Positions 1-27,700 of a stretch of 64,000 bases of DNA are shown here, piece by piece (the first letter of the stretch is position 1; each line of letters begins with the position of its first letter). Below the pieces are notes generated by a model. That model did not search any database, was not told the origin of the DNA, and saw nothing but the letters and a program-made list of their open reading frames with translations. The stretch is from a virus: the IMG/VR virus record IMGVR_UViG_3300035670_000106, positions 1-64,000 of that record; one strand, 5' to 3'. A program made the position numbers and the translations under genes.

Positions 1-145
1 TAAAGGCTTTTTTCTGCAGCTAAGTCCTTGATTTTAAAGGCTTTAGCCTGGCTGAATGATAACGATTCTCATTCTAGCGTTAAACGATTTTGAGAATCAT
101 TCTCATCTGAATAGAAATAAAAAGGCCGGCTATTCGCCGGCCTTT
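1..145. repeat. Pre-early intergenic repeat block A (partial): IHF-like site, two Fur-like boxes, terminator
   Basis: 1-127 is identical to 1371-1497 and nearly identical to 3100-3226. Confidence 0.95.
119..145 (-). terminator. Intrinsic terminator
   Basis: Hairpin AAAGGCCGGC-TATTC-GCCGGCCTTT with T-tract on the minus strand, just after the stop at 152. Confidence 0.85.
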
Positions 146-151
146 ACGGTA

Positions 152-319
152 TTAATAAGCATCCTTCGCGTATTCAATTGCCTCTTTGGCAGTTTCAAAA
201 GGTGAAGCTCCTGATTTCCAGTAATCATAATACGCAAAATCAGGCAAATCCTCAGAGAAAAGCCCTATTTCATTAATCAATGCCGTATCAATAAAGCGCA
301 TGAATTCTTCAAAGCTCAT
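152..319 (-). CDS. Small acidic pre-early protein (55 aa)
   Basis: Start moved from 370 to ATG 319, which has a GAGG RBS and lies 2 nt after the stop of the 321-467 ORF. Confidence 0.75.
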   Translation of the reverse strand: MSFEEFMRFIDTALINEIGLFSEDLPDFAYYDYWKSGASPFETAKEAIEYAKDAY

Positions 320-320
320 T

Positions 321-467
321 TTAGAATTCCTCAGTATAATATTGCAATTGGATTCCCGGAATAGTGTCATTCTCTTTTCCGTTTTCTAATCCTGCGGATT
401 CGAGAGTTTCAAATTCTGTGAAGTCCTCCCAAGCCATTTCAAAGACTAAGTCATATTCAACAGTCAT
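321..467 (-). CDS. Very acidic small protein (48 aa, not in ORF track)
   Basis: Manual translation MTVEYDLVFEMAWEDFTEFETLESAGLENGKENDTIPGIQLQYYTEEF; GGAG RBS; fills the operon gap. Confidence 0.7.
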   Translation of the reverse strand: MTVEYDLVFEMAWEDFTEFETLESAGLENGKENDTIPGIQLQYYTEEF

Positions 468-481
468 TTTCTATTCTCCAA

Positions 482-682
482 TTAGGCATCTCGTAATTCA
501 ATAGTAACTTGAAGCCTGCAAAATACAGATTCTTTCATTTTCCAGTCGGTAATCTGTATTACTTCATTAGGTTCAAATAATCCAGTATTTGCCTTTATCC
601 ATTGCTTTGCTTCATAAATAGATTTGAAATCTATTTCTGCTTTATAAATTACGCCAATTTCTCTATAAATACGAGTCGTCAT
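482..682 (-). CDS. Hypothetical pre-early protein
   Basis: ORF with AGGA RBS inside the minus-strand operon. Confidence 0.7.
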   Translation of the reverse strand: MTTRIYREIGVIYKAEIDFKSIYEAKQWIKANTGLFEPNEVIQITDWKMKESVFCRLQVTIELRDA

Positions 683-729
683 TTTCTATTATCCTATGTG
701 CCGGGCAATTGCCCGGCGGTATTAGTTAA

Positions 730-1074
730 TCAAAGAGGCTTTGAATTGGCCAATGCCGTAAAGATTTTGGCCAATGCCGTTTTATTGGCTTTTGCAAGAG
801 ACTCGCATTCGGCCTCGGTAAAGCCGAGAATTGCACCAATTGCATCGGCAACAGCGTCCTTCTTTTGCGGCTTTTCGCCAGTTTTGCTAATATATTCCTT
901 TTTCTGGTAAATGCCCATCCGAGAGAGTTTAGCAACAATAGAGCGAGTAGTTTTTCCGAATTGAACCGCAAACGCTTCAACCGTTTCAGAAGTAGGATTT
1001 GCCAAATAGGCCTTCTCCAATTGGGTAGTCATTTCGTCGGAATAGTTGACGGTTTTAGCAGTAGTGGCAGCCAT
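730..1074 (-). CDS. T5 A2-like DNA-binding pre-early protein (copy 1)
   Basis: HTH-like segment 'KTTRSIVAKLSRMGIYQKKEY' and C-terminal 'ESLAKANKTAL' resemble T5 A2; pre-early context; GGAG RBS. Confidence 0.7.
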   Translation of the reverse strand: MAATTAKTVNYSDEMTTQLEKAYLANPTSETVEAFAVQFGKTTRSIVAKLSRMGIYQKKEYISKTGEKPQKKDAVADAIGAILGFTEAECESLAKANKTALAKIFTALANSKPL

Positions 1075-1145
1075 AATAAATTCTCCAATGAGGCGGGTTG
1101 GGTAGTAGGGGTTTCGTTGCCTCAGTTCGTCACCCCATGAAAAGA

Positions 1146-1174
1146 ATTATACGCGCCCAGGGTACGAAAGGCAA
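1146..1174 (-). promoter_or_regulatory. sigma70 promoter of the A2-like operon
   Basis: TTGCCT-N17-TATAAT on the minus strand. Confidence 0.8.
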
Positions 1175-1510
1175 GAACAATTTTTCAAAATCTTCAATAT
1201 ATATTTCTATCGTTCCCCAGGTCCTGATAGTTTCAGCCTATCGTCGAATCACATCGGCCAGGTTTTGTCAATTAATTTTAACTATCGCAAGCCAGGACAT
1301 GATAGAAAAATTTTTCTATTTACTTTTCGGCAGCAGCCGGGTACGCTAGCGGCGCCTAAGTCCTTGATTTTAAAGGCTTTTTTCTGCAGCTAAGTCCTTG
1401 ATTTTAAAGGCTTTAGCCTGGCTGAATGATAACGATTCTCATTCTAGCGTTAAACGATTTTGAGAATCATTCTCATCTGAATAGAAATAAAAAGGCCTAT
1501 TCGGCCTTTT
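1175..1510. repeat. Intergenic repeat block B: OxyR-like sites, TACGCT promoter, 2 IHF, 2 Fur, terminator
   Basis: IHF-like 1357-1369 and 1391-1403; Fur-like 1425-1443 and 1461-1475; hairpin 1490-1510. Confidence 0.9.
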
Positions 1511-1524
1511 AATTTTGCTTTTAA

Positions 1525-2220
1525 TTAAGCGGGTTTATACAAATCACGCATTACCCATTCTTTCCAATTAAACGCTTTATTAGTCTTTTCTTTCCAATTA
1601 CGTTTATTGACAATTGCAATAAGAATTGGCAATTCAAAATAAATAGCATCTTCTAATGCGGTATGGGGTTCCAATTCATTATTGCCAGTTACAAAGTGGG
1701 CCATTACTTCAGCTTTCGTCTGCATTACAATGTTTCCTGATTCGGTTTTATTGCCAAAATAATGGTTTTGCATTGCAAAAGCCAAATAACTTTTAGTATT
1801 GCAAAACGTATTAACTGCGGTATGCCAGAGGCAAAACTTTTCAGAAAAGATAGTCAAATCAATACCGCTATTTTGACATTTTCCAAAATCAAACGCCAAA
1901 TTATACGCAGTCAAAACCGGATTAAACTTCGCATTAGCTTTTTCAAGCCAGCGATTAATTGCATTAGCAGAAGCAATCATTCGCTGACCGCTTATAATCA
2001 TTTCATTATATTTAGCTTTCTTTTCAATTGCAGCATCTTTTGACCAGTATTCATTCCGAGAATCCCAAAACAATTCGTCATTCATAAAGTCTTTTACAAT
2101 AATAGCGCATTGCGAATGAATAACGCCTTTCTTATCTACAACAATTGCAGCAAAGTCAAAAACTTTATTGCTTTTCGTAGTTTCAGTGTCAATAATAAGG
2201 AAGAATTGTTTTTTAGCCAT
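1525..2220 (-). CDS. DEDDh 3'-5' exonuclease family protein
   Basis: ExoI 'IIDTETT', ExoII 'AYNLAFD', ExoIII 'HTALEDA'. Confidence 0.85.
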   Translation of the reverse strand: MAKKQFFLIIDTETTKSNKVFDFAAIVVDKKGVIHSQCAIIVKDFMNDELFWDSRNEYWSKDAAIEKKAKYNEMIISGQRMIASANAINRWLEKANAKFNPVLTAYNLAFDFGKCQNSGIDLTIFSEKFCLWHTAVNTFCNTKSYLAFAMQNHYFGNKTESGNIVMQTKAEVMAHFVTGNNELEPHTALEDAIYFELPILIAIVNKRNWKEKTNKAFNWKEWVMRDLYKPA

Positions 2221-2280
2221 TTTGTATTGCCTTTCGATTAAAAGTTTATTACCGGAATAAAGGCCCGGAATATCGGCCTA

Positions 2281-2754
2281 TCAATGCCCTTGTTTAGAAG
2301 GAACGTATACACCGCGAATATTAAAATAATCGCAAACCGCTTTTAAATAACTTGTATTATCCTCATAGAATACCGCGTTATTCCAAGCATTACGAAAGTT
2401 CTTAAGATTAAAAAACTTTTTCAATCCGTTAATCTTCAGAATACCGCCAGAAATAGAAGAACCCTCTTTTCTGCTGATGATATGATTGGGCATTCCTAGT
2501 TTGTCAATAATGAATCGCAAATCTTCTTCTCGAATAATTCTAGCAGTTGCAATAATAACATAACATTCAGGATCATTCAAATCAGCCTTATATTGCTCTG
2601 CCATTGGCAAAAGCGAATCAGAATATGCTTTATGCTCATTAGCACGCCAATAATCCAGATCAATTTTAGTACCGCATTCCAGAGTACGATAGCGGTGAAG
2701 GCTATCAACAATAGTACCATCCATATCATAAATTGCAATTCGTTTAATAGCCAT
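2281..2754 (-). CDS. dmp: Deoxynucleoside-5'-monophosphatase (T5 Dmp-like HAD phosphatase)
   Basis: HAD motif I 'YDMDGTIVDSLHR', 'IIATAR', 'FYEDN'; start at ATG 2754 after the repeated GGAG leader. Confidence 0.75.
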   Translation of the reverse strand: MAIKRIAIYDMDGTIVDSLHRYRTLECGTKIDLDYWRANEHKAYSDSLLPMAEQYKADLNDPECYVIIATARIIREEDLRFIIDKLGMPNHIISRKEGSSISGGILKINGLKKFFNLKNFRNAWNNAVFYEDNTSYLKAVCDYFNIRGVYVPSKQGH

Positions 2755-3240
2755 TTCATTTACTCCATAACGTGTTTCAGTGAGAGTCATTATACAGCAT
2801 GGCAGCCAGGATGCAAGAAAAATTTACATCTTTTTTCATTGTATGTTTCTATCGTTCTTCCAGGTCCTGATAGTTTCAGCCTATGAGCTGGCCCATAAAA
2901 AACGCTAGCCATCAATAGTACAAAATAACTATTGACAAGTAATGGATTGGAGAGTATAATTTTGGCGCCTCCAATTGATAACCGTTCTCATTTTGCCCCT
3001 ACCACACCAGCCAGGTTTTGTCAACAGAATAAAAATAAAAATATTTGTTGCATATTACCCGCTACGCGGGTACGCTTTGCGGCGCTAAGTCCTTGATTTT
3101 AAAGGCTTTTTTCCGCAGCTAAGTCCTTGATTCTAAAGGCTTTAGCCTGGCTGAATGATAACGATTCTCATTCTAGCGTTAAACGATTTTGAGAATCATT
3201 CTCATCTGAATAGAAATAAAAAGGCCTATTCGGCCTTTTT
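2755..3240. repeat. Intergenic repeat block C
   Basis: Shared leader and minus-strand promoter; OxyR-like motif; consensus plus-strand promoter 2932-2960; Fur-like 2974, 3154, 3190; IHF-like 3086, 3120; terminator 3219-3240. Confidence 0.9.
2932..2960 (+). promoter_or_regulatory. Perfect-consensus sigma70 promoter facing non-coding DNA
   Basis: TTGACA-N17-TATAAT; identical copy at 4377-4405. Confidence 0.85.
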
Positions 3241-3572
3241 TAATAAACCTGAGCATTAAAATCGTATTTTGTAATTGCTAAGTATTTTTCTCTATAATAT
3301 TGAAAAAACCTTGTATTATGATTGAATGGCAAATCAAGAGTGTCCTGATAGTAGTGTACCAATTCATGCGCTAATGTATGTTTTATATCTTCCAGGGAAT
3401 CAAACCAATTCAAATAGATTGTAATTTCATTATCAAAGTAATCTGCCATGTGCAAAGTGTGCAGTCTTTTTTGTCTAATAGTAATATCGGACAAATCTAG
3501 TTTATTATCAAATAGCTCATAATTAATGTATTCGAGCATACTATACAGAAAAGAATCAGCTACTTTTTTCAT
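3240..3572 (-). CDS. SprT-like zinc metalloprotease
   Basis: HExxH 'LAHELVHY' plus downstream His 'HNTRF'; ATG 3572 overlaps the upstream micro-ORF stop (ATGA). Confidence 0.8.
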   Translation of the reverse strand: MKKVADSFLYSMLEYINYELFDNKLDLSDITIRQKRLHTLHMADYFDNEITIYLNWFDSLEDIKHTLAHELVHYYQDTLDLPFNHNTRFFQYYREKYLAITKYDFNAQVY

Positions 3573-3649
3573 CTCGTCCACCAGTCAATTAATACAAGTG
3601 TAATAATTACAATACCGCAAATAATACCGAGTTCATGTGCGTATAACAT
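3569..3649 (-). CDS. 26-aa single-TM micro-peptide (not in ORF track)
   Basis: MLYAHELGIICGIVIITLVLIDWWTR; overlaps both neighbours; ATGA coupling to the SprT-like gene. Confidence 0.5.
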   Translation of the reverse strand: MLYAHELGIICGIVIITLVLIDWWTR

Positions 3650-3845
3650 AATTCCAAATTCCAATAATGTTAGCAACAAAAAATGTAAGATTCAAAAGTA
3701 AAAGAGGATTATCTTTTACTTTAATTGCAACGTAAAGCCAAGCACCAGAACCAATTAAAAAGAATATATAACCAATTCCAGCAAAAGTCATTGCAACAAG
3801 AAAAGAGCCTATAATGCTTGCAATTGTCCCAATCCACTTCATCAT
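3633..3845 (-). CDS. Small 3-TM membrane protein (PnuC/SemiSWEET-like appearance)
   Basis: Three hydrophobic segments in 70 aa. Confidence 0.7.
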   Translation of the reverse strand: MMKWIGTIASIIGSFLVAMTFAGIGYIFFLIGSGAWLYVAIKVKDNPLLLLNLTFFVANIIGIWNYVIRT

Positions 3846-3973
3846 TTTTTAATCCAATTCAAAAAAGCCGTTACAATAACTTCTAAAGTTGATATTTTAC
3901 GCCTTTTTTCAAAGGTTTGCAAGTACATTTTATAATTATCTAACGCTTTAATCTGTTTCACAGTGTAACTCAT
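3842..3973 (-). CDS. 43-aa basic peptide (not in ORF track)
   Basis: MSYTVKQIKALDNYKMYLQTFEKRRKISTLEVIVTAFLNWIKK; preceded by a fourth, partial copy of the shared leader; ATGA overlap with the next gene. Confidence 0.6.
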   Translation of the reverse strand: MSYTVKQIKALDNYKMYLQTFEKRRKISTLEVIVTAFLNWIKK

Positions 3974-4017
3974 TTCATTTACTTCATAACGTGTTAAAAT
4001 AATTATATGTTTTATAA

Positions 4018-4200
4018 TTATTTTTTAGATACCTGTTCAATAATTACATTAAGATCAGCATATCCTTCAGAAACTTTATTATATGCTTCTTCCGTATTAG
4101 AGGCCTCTACACGAATATTATAATATTCGTATTTGCTGAAACCATTACAGGAGAAGTCGGAAGGAACCGGAAAACCTACACGAGCCACAAATTCAAACAT
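4018..4200 (-). CDS. Hypothetical pre-early protein
   Basis: ATG 4200 follows the shared GGAG leader. Confidence 0.7.
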   Translation of the reverse strand: MFEFVARVGFPVPSDFSCNGFSKYEYYNIRVEASNTEEAYNKVSEGYADLNVIIEQVSKK

Positions 4201-4605
4201 TTCATTTACTCCATAACGTGTTTCCATGTAAGTCATTATATAGCATGGCAGCCAGGATGCAAGAAAAATTTACATCTTTTTTCATTGTATGTTTCTATCG
4301 TTCTCCAGGCCCTGATAGTTTCAGCCTATGAGCTGACCTATAAAAAACGCTCGCCGTCAATAGTACAAAATAACTATTGACAAGTAATGGATTGGAGAGT
4401 ATAATTTTGGCGCCTCCAATAGGGACAGACTATCGCCCCCCTAATCAGACGATAGAAAAATTTATAATTGACGGGTAAATCAAAGGCAGGTACGCTACGC
4501 GGCGCTAAGTGTTTGATTCTAAAGGCTTTTTTCTAAGCCTAAGTCCTTGATTCTAAAGGCAAAAAGCCTGGCACGGTTCCTGCTTTCACAAGAACCATGC
4601 CATTC
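4201..4605. repeat. Intergenic repeat block D
   Basis: 4201-4420 closely repeats 2755-2975; OxyR-like 4419-4466; IHF-like 4506 and 4540; sigma54-like site within hairpin 4569-4602. Confidence 0.9.
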
Positions 4606-4607
4606 AA

Positions 4608-4952
4608 TTACAGAACCAAATTATCCGAATTCAATTTAGATTCTTTTACACAATCAAGAATCTTATTCAATGCCGTTTTATTGGCTTTGCTAATACTCTC
4701 AATTTCAGCTTCCGTAAATCCCAAAAGCATTCCGATTTGATCCGCAATTGCATCCTTTTTAATAGGGGCATTCCCAGTTTTACTAATGTATTCCTTCTTC
4801 TTATATACACCGCTTCTACTCAATTTTGCAACAATAGAGCGAGTAGTTTTAGAAAAGATATTAGCCAAATCTTCTACGCTAGTTCCATTCTGATATTGTT
4901 CGATCAGAGAAGCAGTCATTTCTTCAGTGTAGTTTACAGTTTTTTCAGCCAT
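4608..4952 (-). CDS. T5 A2-like DNA-binding protein (copy 2)
   Basis: Paralog of 730-1074 (KTVNY.EEMT, KTTRSIVAKLSR, KKEYISKTG, LGFTEAE.ES..KANKTAL); likely start MAEKT. Confidence 0.7.
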   Translation of the reverse strand: MAEKTVNYTEEMTASLIEQYQNGTSVEDLANIFSKTTRSIVAKLSRSGVYKKKEYISKTGNAPIKKDAIADQIGMLLGFTEAEIESISKANKTALNKILDCVKESKLNSDNLVL

Positions 4953-4967
4953 TTTAATTCCTTTCAA

Positions 4968-5135
4968 TTACAGAACAAAAGAGATAACAACTTTAATGAA
5001 GTAGGTAAACCGATTGCTATTATCCTTGAAGTATTCTGATTCTTTTGCATTCAGTGCTTCTTCAAAAGAATCATAATCCTGAATAACGGATTCAGTATAC
5101 CCGTCAAATTTAATTACTTCAAAGCGTTTTTCCAT
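4968..5135 (-). CDS. Hypothetical pre-early protein
   Basis: ORF with AAGGA RBS; likely start MEKRF. Confidence 0.6.
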   Translation of the reverse strand: MEKRFEVIKFDGYTESVIQDYDSFEEALNAKESEYFKDNSNRFTYFIKVVISFVL

Positions 5136-5146
5136 TTCATTTCCTT

Positions 5147-5293
5147 TCAATCATATTGAATATCAATAATCGTATTGTTTCGCGTAATTACATAACAACA
5201 AACGCGACCAAAAGTAACCATATACACACCATTACCACGAAATGAAATGTTAATCATTTCATTCGGAAATTTAGCTTTAATCAACTCAGTCAT
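5147..5293 (-). CDS. Hypothetical pre-early protein
   Basis: ATG 5293 follows the shared leader. Confidence 0.65.
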   Translation of the reverse strand: MTELIKAKFPNEMINISFRGNGVYMVTFGRVCCYVITRNNTIIDIQYD

Positions 5294-5490
5294 TTCATTT
5301 ACTCCATAACGTGTTTCCATGTAAGTCATTATACAGCATGGCAGCCAGGATGCAAGAACAATTTACATATTTTTTCATTGTATGTTTCTATCGTTCTCCA
5401 GGTCCTGATAGTTAAAAACTAAACTTGCACACAAGCAAGAACTATGCCAACTGGGGCGGTTATCAGACTGAGAATCATTCGCATTACCAG
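5294..5490. repeat. Intergenic repeat block E
   Basis: Shared leader and promoter (5328-5355), OxyR-like 5377-5422, sigma54-like 5434-5450, Fur-like 5469-5483. Confidence 0.85.
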
Positions 5491-5510
5491 TGGCCCCACC
5501 GCGCGCGATA

Positions 5511-5580
5511 AATTAGAAATTCTATGGAAGCCAGATAGGTGTATAATTAGAAATTCTATGGTAGGTGTATTCTATGGAAG
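5511..5580. repeat. Short direct repeats at the pre-early/late junction
   Basis: AATTAGAAATTCTATGG x2, TAGGTGTAT x2, TTCTATGG x3. Confidence 0.85.
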
Positions 5581-5602
5581 ATTAGCATCAAAATTTTTAA
5601 AC

Positions 5603-5631
5603 TTGACTTAAGCTACCCATCATGTTATAAT
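5603..5631 (+). promoter_or_regulatory. Late sigma70 promoter (terminase operon)
   Basis: TTGACT-N17-TATAAT with extended TG and an A/T-rich UP element. Confidence 0.85.
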
Positions 5632-5662
5632 AGATACATCCTAACAAAATTGTATTTATATT

Positions 5663-6145
5663 ATGTTACCAACACAACCGCCCGTATATTCACCAGCGCA
5701 GTCAGTAGTTATATCTCCAGAAGCGCTGGAAATAGCCAATATGTACCTTACTACTCAAAATGTCCAAAAAACGGCCCAAGAGCTCGGAGTAGCACCTGAG
5801 TTAGTGTCCGAAACTTTAGATAGACGAGAAGTACGAGCATATATTGATAATCTCTTTCTAGACGCAGGATTCAATAATCGGTTCAGGATGAGAGAAGTAA
5901 TGGATGCCATTATTAGCAAAAAGTTGCAGGAACTCGACGAGGCAGAGGTCGGAAGCAGCAAGGATATTGCAGATCTTCTAGCACTGTCACATAAAATGAC
6001 AATGGATATTCTCGACCGTCAGATCAAATTAGAGACACTTAAAGCAAGTAATGGAGTTAAAACACAAGTTAATATGCAAGTGAACGAATTTGGAGGAGAT
6101 ACCAAATACGCAGCACTCATATCAAAGTTACTCGGAGCTAAGTAA
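5663..6145 (+). CDS. terS: Terminase small subunit
   Basis: T5-like TerS: 160 aa, 'ISPEALEIANMYL', 'SSKDIADLL'; upstream of TerL. Confidence 0.85.
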   Translation: MLPTQPPVYSPAQSVVISPEALEIANMYLTTQNVQKTAQELGVAPELVSETLDRREVRAYIDNLFLDAGFNNRFRMREVMDAIISKKLQELDEAEVGSSKDIADLLALSHKMTMDILDRQIKLETLKASNGVKTQVNMQVNEFGGDTKYAALISKLLGAK

Positions 6146-8666: not shown

Positions 8667-10082
8667 GACCCATACATCATTACCAGAATCATATACAGGG
8701 TAGAAACCTTCTTTAGCCATAATTTCTTTTTCAGTTAGCTCTTCAGAGTAGCTATCAGGAAACATATCTTTTAGTAAGTATTTTTGGCACTGGTACCTAC
8801 TAAGACGCTTACTGTATCCCCTATAATAAGCGTAATTAGGTCTGCTAGTATGAGATAGAAAAAACCCAAGAGATTTATAAAGATCACCATTAGACCATCT
8901 TCTATCTGAATAAGATATAATACTTCCCTTATGCTCCTTTCTGAAACTATTGAGTAATTTCGAAGCTCCTCCAACTACATTTATTCCAATTTTGGAACAA
9001 TAGCGAACTAGTTCATAATTATAAGAATTATTAAATCTAGGAGTATTAAAAGTCATTACCGCTATTAACTCTCCGTCTAATACTAATCCATAGTTATACT
9101 TAGTTGGAGATCCTGCCCCTTGTAAGTGATTGTTTACCAAGAAATCCCTAGGAAAGCCTATCTTAACTATAGAGCATTTTCTAGCATACACTTTATCATT
9201 TAAATTCAGCAAGCTACTTATTTTAGATCTAACTATACTTTGTTTTAGTCTCCATTCGTCTTCATTAATATGTACTAGTCTATACCCTACTTCTTTTATT
9301 TTTTCAGTTTTAAAATTAAAAGAATACTCATCTTCTTTATGCCAGTATATACCATTATACTCAAAAGCAATCCCTAAGTCTGGTAATACTATATCTAATT
9401 CCTTACCTCCTAATATACTTCTATCATTACGTTCAATCCATCCAGGGTATACAGAAAAAATAAATTTATATAATTCTTCCTCACCCTTTGATACATTAGG
9501 AAAACAAGTACGACAAGTACTGCCAGAATTATCTGTTAGTAGAGCATTTGGAATAATATCCCACTCATGCCCACAGCTACCTCTTACAGTAACCCTACTT
9601 TTAGCACTTATATATTTACCTACTACTTTAAGATTAAATTTATCAAAAACTTCCTTTTCAAAAAACTCCTGAGGCTTAGTACCAGTAGTCACAGGTATTC
9701 CAGCACATATTCTACAAATACTATTAACACCTTTTTCTAGAATTTTTGTTGGAATAATATCCCACTCATGCCCACAGTCGCCACGTACCTTAATACTAGT
9801 TTTAGCAGTTTTATATTCTTCTAACAAAGTTAGTTTAGGGTACTTAGAAAGTAATTCACTCTTAAATGTTTCATTAGTTTTTCTATTATGTGCTACTCTA
9901 GGACTACATTTAGGACATCTTGACTTATCTCCTCGATTAACTAAATTACCATAAATAGCATTCCAAGAAGTATCACAAGTATTACACTTTAAAAGTATCT
10001 TATTTTTAGAACCTAAGTACTCGCTAATTACACTAATATTAGGATATAAGCTATGTACTTTATCAATATACTTATTTGACAT
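8646..10082 (-). CDS. Hef-like endonuclease: Zn-ribbon repeats + PD-(D/E)xK domain + GNAT/Mom-like domain
   Basis: CxxC/CGHEW repeats; 'ELDIVLPDLGIAFEYNGIYWH'; 'NHLQG', 'ELVRYCS', 'GGASKLL', 'SYSDRRWSNGDLY'. Confidence 0.75.
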   Translation of the reverse strand: MSNKYIDKVHSLYPNISVISEYLGSKNKILLKCNTCDTSWNAIYGNLVNRGDKSRCPKCSPRVAHNRKTNETFKSELLSKYPKLTLLEEYKTAKTSIKVRGDCGHEWDIIPTKILEKGVNSICRICAGIPVTTGTKPQEFFEKEVFDKFNLKVVGKYISAKSRVTVRGSCGHEWDIIPNALLTDNSGSTCRTCFPNVSKGEEELYKFIFSVYPGWIERNDRSILGGKELDIVLPDLGIAFEYNGIYWHKEDEYSFNFKTEKIKEVGYRLVHINEDEWRLKQSIVRSKISSLLNLNDKVYARKCSIVKIGFPRDFLVNNHLQGAGSPTKYNYGLVLDGELIAVMTFNTPRFNNSYNYELVRYCSKIGINVVGGASKLLNSFRKEHKGSIISYSDRRWSNGDLYKSLGFFLSHTSRPNYAYYRGYSKRLSRYQCQKYLLKDMFPDSYSEELTEKEIMAKEGFYPVYDSGNDVWVLDSKGV

Positions 10083-10112
10083 TTGTAAAATTTCCTCATT
10101 TGTAGAAATTTT

Positions 10113-10141
10113 ATTATAGCATATAAGTATAATAATTTCAA
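10113..10141 (-). promoter_or_regulatory. sigma70 promoter of the hef-like gene
   Basis: TTGAAA-N17-TATAAT with extended TG on the minus strand. Confidence 0.7.
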
Positions 10142-10162
10142 TACTAAAATTTTATAGGTTAT

Positions 10163-24709: not shown

Positions 24710-27700
24710 ATGGAATGGCATAATAAATATATAGGTATCCCTTACCAGGAAAAGGGAAGAACTGCTGAGGAAGGATTAGACTGCTGGGGATTGGTACGTC
24801 TAGTGTACGATAAAGAGTTTGATATTACCTTACCTAGCTATGTAGAAGCATACGAAGCGGAAGATATTGAGAAAACAGCTGAGTTAATATCTATTCATAA
24901 AGAGGGTTGGGAGCCGGTAGAACTGCCTCAAGCCGGTGATGTAGTTCTATTCTCTATATGTGGACAAGAGGGTCATGTAGGTATAGTAGTTAGGCCCGGC
25001 TTATTTCTGCATGTTATAGAGGGGCAAGCTTCAGTAATAGAATCATATACCAGTGCTAAATGGAAAAAACGAGTAGTAGGTACTTTTAGGTATAATGAGT
25101 TAAGTAAAACAAGAATGTCCGTTGTACCTAGTCCTTTGTCTAATATAAGAATCAATCTTAATGTACCAGAGGGGTCAGACCTATACACAGCTATATCTCT
25201 TATTAAACTACAGTTCCCAGAGTACAGAGATATTATAGAAAAATCAGGTACAGTAATACTAGTTAATAGTGTTGTAGTACCGGAAGATAAGTGGAAAGAT
25301 ATAGTATTAAAGTCAACTGATGTTGTGGAGTATAGAGCAGTTGCTGGCAAAAGCGGTATACTAAGAATTTTTGCAGTAATACTAATAGCTGTAGTTGCGT
25401 GGTATGCGGCACCTTATTTAGCTGGTGCAGGATCCTTTGGCAGTGCTGGTTGGGGGGTGGCAGCTACTTCTACCTTAACAGGACTGTCTGTTACCGCAAC
25501 AGCCAATATAATAGCCGCCGGCATAAATATGGTAGGGGGACTACTATTAAACGCTCTATTCCCTATTAGACCGCCACCACCTCCATTAGATCCCGGAGAT
25601 GCTGAAGAATACAAGATGGTTACAGGCCAGTCAAATAATCCTCAGAAGTATGGTAGTATACCTTTAGTACTGGGAAAAGTTAAATTTTCTCCGCCAGCAG
25701 CAGCTATACCGTATTATGAAAACAAAACTAATTATAACTATTTACACCAACTACTTTGTTGGGGATATGGGCCCTTGGAGATAACAGACTTAAAACTTGA
25801 CGAGAAACCCCTAGGTAGTTGGGGAGAGCTTGAATATGTCACGTATGATGGGATTAATGGTAGTTATGAAGACGTAGAAAAGTTATACCCTAGGGAAGTT
25901 GTTCAAAAAGTAGTTAATCAGGAGCCCTACTATAAGGACTTAAGAATAGGTAAATTTAATACTGATATTAATTACGCTAATTTTGGAATTAGTTGGAGTG
26001 GTAGCAGTATTACTGTAACTACAGATAAAAACCACGGATTGTATGTTGGTGACTATGTTAGTTTAAATAAGGTATACCTACCAACAAAAACACATAGAAG
26101 TGCTAAGTTTTTATCTGTAGCTTTAACAGCCTCAGGCATATCGTCAAAGTTAGCAGCTGAGGAACAGCCTGTAGATGCAGTTGTAGCTCTTGGCATTATT
26201 TCTGCAGTAAATTCTGATACCTCTTTTATTTTAGATATATCAGAGGATCAAGCAAACTTTTTAGGTACTTATGGGGCTTCTGGGTCCAACTCTACTTTAA
26301 TAAATCAGATTGTATCAACTAATAAAATAGAAACAGTTATAGATGAGCCCGTAGATAGTATAGTAATAGATATTTTATTCCCTCAAGGGTGTAGAAAGAT
26401 TATAACAGAAGGCAAGGCCGCGGGGAGTATTCGTGAAGCTAATCCTAGTCATATGATTCTATTTAAGAAACTAGATAGGGAAACTGGAGAGGAAATAGAC
26501 GATGAATGGTTATCTTCCCCATCCTCAATTTTAAACTATATTAATCTATCCTCTAATTCTTTAACATTATCAACTCCTACTAGTATAGTGAGTAAGTTTT
26601 CCATTAATCAATATGACGGATATAGCCCATTTAGTCTTAATCCTTGGGGGAGCGTATATTTAAGACCTTGGTATTATGATACTAGTAATATATTTAATTA
26701 TGCTGTAGTGTACTTAGAAGAAAATAGTACTACGTATAATGTAGTGTATTCTAGTGTTACAACAGATCCTTTAGGAGAAACTAAACCATTACAGTCGGAT
26801 AATGTTTTAGGTGCTTGGTACTACATTACTGATACCAGGGGAGACTATACGTATGTTACATACTATGGTGATAATAATGATAATAATTATGCTTATTACT
26901 ATAACAGAGAGGAGGTAGGGTATGCTAGAAACTTTAAGTCTCTAACACTTGCTAAAGCAGAGGCAGAGAACTTAGGGAAAATTGTAGCTATATACAAACT
27001 ACAAGGTAATAGTGTAATATCGGAAGTATATGATAACTTGTCAGAAAATTATGAAAGTCTAACTTCTGCTACTTATGTACAAAGTAGTGGTATAGTAACT
27101 TTAACTGTAAGTACTAACAAGCCTGTGTTAGAAGGTAGTATATTATATCTAGAATTTAATACATCAGATGCTAATAGGCCTGCTAACGGATACTATAGAG
27201 TAGATGAGATAACCAGCTACAGTACCTCTGAAGTAGTATGCAAGTTAAAATCTACAAACAATAATACCTCTTCCGGCTCAGTAGATTTAATAAAAGCCTT
27301 AAAGTTATCGCAAAGTATACTTACTGTAGTTGACTCATCTTATTCTCCTCTTCTAACAAAAATATCTGGTACTACAGTTACTTTTGATAAGGGATACAAG
27401 GTATACGCACCAAGATTTAGTAGTGAAAAAATAGGGGGTAGTACTTCAGGTTTTTATAGGTATAAGGACGCTTTCAATGTAACATATACGAGAGTAACTA
27501 GCAGACTTTTTAAGTATAAAGTACTAATATTTAGAACTTCTGAACCTACTCATGATTATACATCAACCTATAAGTATCAAAACCTCTCTAAAAGTATTAT
27601 TCAAACTATTACTGGCATAAAAAGTAATGATGCTATTTCTTATGAAAATATAAGAAATAGAGATAATGAAAAAGTGCCGCTAGCATTAACAAGTGTTAAA

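Follow-up and report, generated by a model that had tools for sequence, protein, structure and literature searches.

The DNA studied here is positions 1 to 64,000 of the IMG/VR virus record IMGVR_UViG_3300035670_000106 (one strand, 64,000 nt; the window), and the element in question is a set of eight short palindromes in its first 5.5 kb that resemble operators of the host regulator Fur. The window belongs to a distant T5-like phage from a subsurface metagenome. Its large terminase subunit (TerL) is 46–49% identical to the counterparts of T5-like Vibrio and Pectobacterium phages, and the small terminase gene, terS, starts at 5663. The genes between 152 and 5329 are all on the minus strand. Because a dmp-family gene and two A2-family genes are among them, bases 1 to ~5505 were taken as the counterpart of the pre-early DNA of T5, which is transferred in the first step. 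This part is probably pre-early DNA and terminal repeat. The features of the region are collected in Table 1.

The first-pass annotation had described eight Fur-like boxes, mostly in tandem pairs, and all of them were confirmed (starts at 55, 91, 1425, 1461, 2976, 3154, 3190, and 5469). The 19-mer of box 1, AATGATAACGATTCTCATT, is found exactly at 55, 1425, and 3154 against a chance expectation of 0.01 matches, and a relative with three mismatches begins at 2974. Box 2, TGAGAATCATTCTCA, is a perfect palindrome of two 7-nt arms around one central base (7-1-7). It stands without mismatch at 91, 1461, and 3190 and with a single one at 5469, and the variant TGATAACCGTTCTCA is located at 2976. The annotated distance of 36 bp between box 1 and box 2 also held from start to start, and it corresponds to 34 bp from centre to centre. 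All three pairs are contained in intergenic direct repeats, D1 of 127 nt (100/100/98% identity) and D3 of 173 nt (95%). Therefore, the six paired boxes are copies of one another, and the number of independent sequences is four (box 1, box 2, 2976, and 5469) instead of eight.

The boxes were scored at 14 positions against the textbook 7-1-7 Fur consensus. Box 1 and box 2 each have two mismatches. The boxes at 2976 and 5469 have three, which is the chance level if they are scored alone: 10.7 such matches are expected in 64 kb, 17 were observed, and 17 was reached in 5 of 100 shuffles. Since two of the four are no better than chance as Fur matches, the earlier argument that four different sequences indicate selection has little weight by itself, and it was rescued by the occurrence of the motif in relatives. 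The boxes at 2976 and 5469 were accepted as real members because of their context and their relatives, not their Fur score; the former occupies a promoter-proximal slot and the latter a genome-end spacer, both of which are described below. In the whole contig of 90,095 nt, TGAGAATCATTCTCA with at most one mismatch is found only at the four sites below 5,500. The degenerate 19-nt pattern AATGANAATNATTNTCATT with up to three mismatches has 12 sites, eight of them within the first 5.5 kb, and the reversed-pattern control has six. Another good Fur-like match at 26869–26894 falls within a stretch of GAT/AAT codons of an open reading frame and was judged to be a chance match.

The likeness to Fur boxes proved much stronger than could be recognised from the window. 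The best box of T5 (NC_005859), AATGAGAATCATTATCATT at 9656–9674, is identical to the reverse complement of window box 1 at 18 of 19 positions. The T5 box also agrees with the Fur site of E. coli K-12 gpmA at all 18 specified positions and differs from it only at the centre base, which is unspecified; three E. coli genomes have a 19-of-19 match to the T5 box upstream of gpmA. In Table 4 of Chen et al. 2007 (PMC2189734), the gpmA site has 27.4 bits, is tied for the top of the E. coli genome, and is confirmed by gel shift. When 5,426 complete E. coli genomes were searched with a 37-nt piece of the T5 array, the commonest match was the mntH–nupC intergenic region, 44–72 nt upstream of mntH. A Fur site of 19.9 bits at –56 of mntH is listed in the same table. 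For the box-2 region of the window, only the Fur site of the mntH promoter was matched in E. coli (E = 2, five genomes). The iucABCD Fur box given for HinfI protection assays, GAGAATCATTAGCATTCGC (PMC10318462), has the hexamers GAGAAT and GCGAAT in common with the phage motif. Taken over gpmA (18–19 of 19 positions for the T5 box), mntH, and iucABCD, the hexamers common to the E. coli operators and the phage sites are GAGAAT, GCGAAT, and GATAAT. Among the predicted Fur boxes of A. baumannii listed in PMC3055841 is TTAAATGAGAATCATTTTCATTTAT. As described in PMC2189734, Fur sites cluster at offsets of 3 or 6 bp, and the Fur model of E. coli is similar to those of P. aeruginosa and B. subtilis. 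Overlapping sites at the 6-bp offset, another likeness to the E. coli operators, are present in T5 (9691/9697), in phage My1 (12315/12321), and in two loci, L089 (754/760) and L014 (near 6650). In the window, an extra reversed hexamer (ATTCTC ATTCTA) is found at box 1 only. By its sequence, the phage motif reads as a strong, high-affinity Fur operator.

The same motif is confined to first-entering DNA in cultured T5-like phages. The whole genomes of seven T5-like isolates were scanned at up to two mismatches, with reversed-pattern controls giving 0–1 matches, and nearly all of the matches fell in terminal-repeat or pre-early DNA. There are four matches per repeat in T5, nine in My1, and two in phi3, all of them in the terminal repeats only. 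Vibrio phages X1 and PG07 have seven each within the ~8 kb adjoining the terminase genes, and Klebsiella phage Sugarland has four in the terminal repeat. Obesumbacterium phage Ob_P has five, four near 0.8–3.1 kb and one at 96.6 kb of a circular record. In T5, five units of the TAAATGAGAATCATT type stand at 9552–9709, inside the annotated injection stop signal (9140–10149). A spacing of 35 bp recurs in T5, My1, X1, PG07, and Sugarland, and that of the window pair is 34 bp. In My1 and phi3, a Fur-like box lies 17–48 nt from the annotated start of the repeat, and the window box at 5469 is comparable by homology. The boxes are also clustered in large non-coding regions of the coliphages alia and tuntematon, which belong to Stephanstirmvirinae and are unrelated to T5.

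Some further observations were made in these isolates. A perfect TGATAATCATTATCA is present within the dmp coding sequence of T5 (L085 233–247), 233 nt from the left end, and a near-identical site is found at the same distance from the end in Sugarland (204–222). The annotated major single-strand interruption of T5 (9748/9749) directly follows the G+C-rich hairpin that closes the Fur-like array (L085 9729–9749). The clusters of alia and tuntematon consist of three to five strong boxes in long non-coding repeat regions (L091 1500–1640, L109, and L092 1440–1560). Each of the two phages has a second cluster 11–13 kb away, that of alia being in a non-coding stretch of 1.8 kb.

The distribution was the same in 80 related IMG/VR loci, which were retrieved by terS. 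With up to two mismatches, the 19-nt pattern was matched 16 times upstream of terS (298,882 nt), corresponding to 12 distinct instances, and not at all downstream (544,785 nt); the reversed-pattern controls were matched zero and two times, respectively. The motif AATGAnAATnATTnTCATT, where present, is always upstream of terS. Many of these boxes occupy a defined slot. The relatives and the window have 148 instances of a promoter module, TTGACA-N17-TAtAAT followed by GGCGC, by a strict definition and 169 by a looser one. All of them are on the terS strand, opposite to the genes beside them. An inverted repeat usually follows the module, and a terminator often does, so only very short non-coding transcripts would result. 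The Fur-like palindrome with extended arms, cccAAATGAnAATnATTnTCATTTggg, is one class of these inverted repeats and is found in L013 (twice), L014 (twice), L046, L049, L069, and L088; one of the two L014 boxes is a perfect TGATAATCATTATCA. Seven of the 12 distinct boxes of the relatives and the window box at 2976 begin ~7–10 nt past the GGCGC of a consensus promoter, and the other seven window boxes do not. The slot of 2976 is thus the one that holds well-formed boxes in L013, L014, L046, L049, L069, and L088.

A second pattern was noticed in the same loci. The sigma-54-type –24/–12 consensus TGGCAC-N5-TTGC has 54 exact matches in the 80 loci, against none for the reversed pattern, and nearly all of them are upstream of terS (L068, L070, L073, L077, L078, L081, L046, and others). 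The window has two matches with one mismatch each, at 4569–4583 (+) and 5435–5449 (–). In the L070 group, three direct sigma-54-type copies flank the Fur-like box, and some of the copies form arms of long hairpins. Repeats of the TTTTGCAC type also stand beside the box in L070.

Table 1. Boxes, genes, and regulatory features in the pre-early part of the window.
Feature	Position	Strand	Remark
Box 1 copy a, AATGATAACGATTCTCATT	55..73		Exact match
Box 2 copy a, perfect 7-1-7 palindrome TGAGAATCATTCTCA	91..105		Centre 34 bp from box 1
G+C-rich hairpin terminator of minus-strand operon	121..145	–	16 nt past box 2
A2-like DNA-binding protein, paralog 1	730..1074	–	phrog_1725, E 7e-06; T5 A2 same family, E 4e-52
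Outward promoter-like TTTACT-17-TACGCT, then GGCGC	1319..1355	+	Homologous to TTGACA-N17-TAtAAT-GGCGC modules of relatives
Box 1 copy b	1425..1443		Within repeats D1/D3
Box 2 copy b	1461..1475		
Bidirectional hairpin terminator after pair b	1490..1510		
dmp-like HAD phosphatase	2281..2757	–	phrog_415, E 1.9e-11; T5 dmp same family
Perfect sigma-70 consensus promoter TTGACA-17-TATAAT + GGCGC	2932..2968	+	Faces away from coding direction
Degenerate box TGATAACCGTTCTCA	2976..2990		Begins 7 nt past GGCGC of perfect promoter
Outward promoter-like TTGCAT-17-TACGCT, then GGCGC	3048..3085	+	Heads cassette c
Box 1 copy c	3154..3172		
Box 2 copy c	3190..3204		
Hairpin terminator after pair c	3218..3240	–	
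Further promoter-GGCGC modules	4377–4413 and 4468–4505		
A2-like DNA-binding protein, paralog 2	4608..4952	–	65% identical to paralog 1
Conserved genome-end element GTCTGATAACCGCC (reverse complement)	5455..5468	–	
Box TGAGAATCATTCGCA	5469..5483		Variable spacer between two conserved end blocks; ~25–35 nt from predicted genome end
Second conserved end block, reverse complement CGCGCGCGGTGGGGCC	5492..5507	–	ACGTGtGGGTGGGCC in relatives

The intergenic regions of the window are built as cassettes, described here along the plus strand and so opposite to the genes. Their order is a sigma-70-type promoter, GGCGC, a hairpin with a T-run (twice), a box pair (in three cassettes), and a terminator. The promoters at 2932 and 4377 have the perfect TTGACA-17-TATAAT sequence, and those at 1319, 3048, and 4468 have a weaker form ending in TACGCT. 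At the end of the cassette, there is a G+C-rich bidirectional terminator that belongs to the neighbouring minus-strand operon. The promoter-like sequence at 1319 thus heads a short non-coding unit of two hairpin repeats, one box pair, and a terminator. The hairpin/T-run repeats, ctaagtccttgattttaaaggc, each contain the core consensus of IHF, AATCAAGGACTTA, on the minus strand (21–33, 1357–1369, and 1391–1403). This amounts to three matches in 2,975 nt against 0.43 expected, two of them 34 bp apart. A different cassette of promoter, leader, and ribosome-binding site is present at 2744–2874, 4190–4320, and 5283–5413, with a minus-strand TTGCAT-17-TATAAT and a conserved leader ending in GGAGTAAATGAAATG. 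It is fused to three unrelated minus-strand genes, and this gives them falsely shared N-termini (M T x x E T R Y G V N E M).

The other end of the region carries the conserved genome-end element, whose T5 counterpart is GTCTGCTAACCGCC at nt 29–42 of the left end. In the stored loci and the window, the element has 34 matches, which belong to 28 related metagenomic loci, T5, phi3 (three copies), My1, and the window. It is upstream of terS in the 28 metagenomic loci, once per locus, and it is also found where the annotated repeats of phi3 and My1 begin. The physical genome end was placed near 5505 because of the alignment of the end blocks with those of the relatives. The unitig depth in run X1, the likely source, is 17–21 to the left of ~5320 and 11.9 from 5373 onward; contig depths are coarse, and the step near 5320–5373 is a weak hint that fits a terminal repeat in two copies per genome. 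The contig begins inside the terminal repeat and thus lacks its inner part. The first 5.7 kb have no similarity to the rest of the contig, which therefore contains no assembled second copy of the repeat.

Several minor features were recorded around this end. Loose unitig ends of run X1 at 1382–1384 represent other cassette variants in the same samples. Just outside the predicted end, there are direct repeats TAGAAATTCTATGG (5514 and 5548) and TTCTATGGAAG, which are followed by the terS promoter TTGACT-17-TATAAT at 5603–5631. In phi3 (L086), three genome-end elements stand in tandem at 2783, 2996, and 3111, two of them outside the annotated right terminal repeat. The search of the phage collection gave no near-identical DNA, and the tRNA search found none. 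In bases 1–6000, Rfam gave only a sub-threshold match to the rimP leader (28.3 bits; gathering score 47). When bacterial genomes were scanned with TerL, only three contigs of metagenome-assembled genomes were obtained (bins Saccharibacteria, 'bacterium', and Methylococcaceae), and the look-alikes of a porin-like protein were uninformative on the host. The sequencing runs are labelled as subsurface or soil metagenome.

The closest known counterpart of the window boxes is the array in the injection stop signal of T5. This array (Repeat Region 3, the direct repeat C or 'DRC' copies of Davison with palE–palJ) has the same core TAAATGAGAATCATT, a period of ~35 bp, and a location in the first-step-transfer DNA, and in both phages a G+C-rich hairpin comes after the boxes. 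Unlike the T5 array, the units of the window are split into pairs at three operon boundaries and singles after a promoter and at the genome end. The T5 motif units are equated with DRC by the order and the coordinates in Davison's text, where the direct repeat C copies and palE–palJ lie between inverted repeats of DnaA boxes and the DRD repeats (10.1101/866236). The same text gives a calculated shear point of the first-step DNA at 9618 and considers the function of the repeats to be beyond guessing. The shear point falls inside the T5 box array. The inverted DnaA-box repeats of the T5 type and the GTGCAAATCCGAC repeats were not found in the window, whose contig is cut at its left end inside the repeat region, and DnaA boxes are at chance level there (21 against 17.9 expected). 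In the DnaA-box model of the T5 injection stop described in 10.1101/866236, the idea is the same, namely that an abundant host DNA-binding protein reads sites in the first-step DNA. The protein and the sites are different from those of a Fur reading, and the word Fur is absent from that text. The literature search found no paper linking Fur to the first-step DNA of T5; Davison 2015, the older T5 sequence papers, and supplements were outside its scope. The boxes belong to a family-wide cis-element, which has been known in T5 only as unexplained repeats.

Fur sites are also known from other phage-derived DNA. In PMC2189734 Table 4, the sites next to the prophage packaging genes have 25.3 bits (nohB) and 22.3 bits with gel-shift confirmation (nohA), and in lambda phages of infant gut samples a fur box precedes sitABCD (PMC6969025). 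These sites are single and stand beside particular genes of temperate elements. In contrast, the boxes of the window and of the T5-like phages form arrays, and these are restricted to the DNA that enters first in virulent phages. The phage boxes also differ from cellular Fur boxes, which overlap the promoters of iron genes, in being phased arrays in non-coding first-entry DNA and mostly away from gene promoters.

Considering the motif sequence, which is that of a high-affinity Fur operator, the metal-loaded Fur dimer of the host is the most likely ligand. The boxes would thus be host Fur operators, an assignment that has good support in their sequence and distribution and that we regard as somewhat probable. 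The search for a phage-encoded Fur (PF01475) gave no matches. Several observations weigh against this assignment. Seven of the eight window boxes have no promoter overlap, which is unlike classical Fur operators; they lie past outward promoters, beside terminators, and near the genome end, and none is at the promoter of a pre-early gene. Of the 41 related loci that extend more than 3 kb upstream of terS, only 13 carry the Fur-like motif. The promoter slot in the relatives is filled by inverted repeats of many unrelated sequence classes (within 15 nt of the module in 150 of 169). Likewise, the genome-end spacer of many relatives bears the palindrome type of its own lineage instead of a Fur-like box, and the region of Vibrio phage phi3 that resembles the injection stop signal has a different four-fold repeat in place of the T5 array. 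Some symmetric variants, such as TGCGAAT-N-ATTCGCA and ACGCGAATCATTCGCGT in L069, depart from the Fur consensus. Since the Fur-like palindrome is one option among many, the pattern also fits lineage-specific binders encoded by the phages.

The boxes could be operators for a dimeric, pre-early DNA-binding protein of the phage, with the two A2-like paralogs as the best candidates and the likeness to Fur sites as a convergence of A/T-rich palindromes. Such binding would serve to switch off pre-early transcription or to restart DNA transfer. The two A2-family genes sit among the boxes, T5 A2 is annotated as a DNA-binding protein and is needed with A1 for DNA transfer, and the motif is restricted to DNA that is present while only pre-early proteins exist. 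The different palindromes that lineages carry in the same slots resemble co-evolving pairs of operator and repressor, and the replaced array of phi3 and the symmetric variants also fit. However, the box clusters of alia and tuntematon occur without any homolog of the A2 family (phrog_1725), of which T5, My1, and phi3 have three or more matches each. A2-like genes are present in all 14 motif-bearing loci but also in 25 of the 28 motif-free loci. The A2-like protein of the window has no detectable BLASTP similarity to T5 A2 (E 0.08), although E. coli phages and a subsurface metagenome phage have the DNA motif in unchanged form. In the 42 loci compared, no protein family was exclusive to the motif-bearing ones; the best association was 12 of 14 against 8 of 28 (uncorrected p = 8e-4), a value confounded by relatedness and by near-identical loci counted separately. 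The phage-protein explanation is possible but doubtful on this evidence.

Nucleic-acid hairpins are another conceivable role, in which the palindromes would act as 5' stem-loops or attenuators of short outward transcripts. The inverted repeats that follow the promoter modules, many of them with variable loops and some with a T-run, suit this role, and the L014 box with its flanks folds at –13.6 kcal/mol (z = –5.6). In the window, a pure hairpin role is unlikely because the boxes are weak or unstructured as RNA (–6.6, –4.3, 0, and –0.5 kcal/mol). Moreover, half-site mismatches are uncompensated in L013, L046, L049, and L088, the sequence is kept across families beyond what pairing needs with the spacing always 7-1-7, and the arrays of T5, My1, and Sugarland are not downstream of such promoters. 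The hairpin explanation is thus very improbable. The boxes may also have no function at all and represent a duplicated intergenic segment with chance A/T-rich palindromes plus two chance singles. Copying does account for six of the eight boxes, and those at 2976 and 5469 are at chance level as pure Fur matches. This explanation is close to negligible when set against the recurrence of the motif in diverged relatives, where it again occupies the slot behind the outward promoter and the genome-end spacer, and against its pre-early restriction in the seven isolates and the 80 metagenomic loci, for which the reversed-pattern controls were clean. Some other host factor, or an explanation not considered here, is improbable.

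If host Fur is the ligand, the placement of the boxes suggests what it would do. By their location, the boxes form a cis-element that marks the first-entering DNA of T5-like phages, namely pre-early and terminal-repeat DNA. In vivo, Fur would bind as a pair between an outward promoter and a bidirectional terminator at three operon boundaries, shortly past the start of the consensus outward promoter (2976), and ~30 nt from the genome end (5469). The bound Fur could block outward transcription in an iron-dependent manner and might do the same to DNA transfer or end processing. The first-pass annotation had proposed a titration of Fur, in connection with iron uptake and NrdB, or an iron-responsive transcription of pre-early genes. 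These proposals are conjectural, and the placement points instead to the control of outward transcription, DNA transfer, or the genome end, and titration of Fur as the genomes multiply would be a secondary consequence. As a speculative and rather unlikely extension, host Fur may read the T5-like injection stop signal. In this case, the arrays would load Fe-Fur onto the entering DNA, and the pause between the first and second steps, outward transcription, or end protection would become iron-dependent.

T5 enters the cell via FhuA, a receptor that is controlled by Fur. The cause of the stop of T5 DNA after 8% entry and the role of the conserved repeats there have been open questions for decades. 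The repeats as Fur-operator sequences in first-entry DNA offer a concrete alternative to the DnaA proposal, and it concerns T5-like phages of Escherichia, Klebsiella, Pectobacterium, Vibrio, and Obesumbacterium as well as their uncultured subsurface relatives. In the absence of Fur binding, the arrays would indicate where a conserved early protein of the phage acts. With Fur bound, the iron state of the host would be sensed or perturbed by these phages from the first seconds of infection. This would have a bearing on the choice of receptor, on the iron-dependent supply of nucleotides, and on the recruitment of host factors to incoming DNA.

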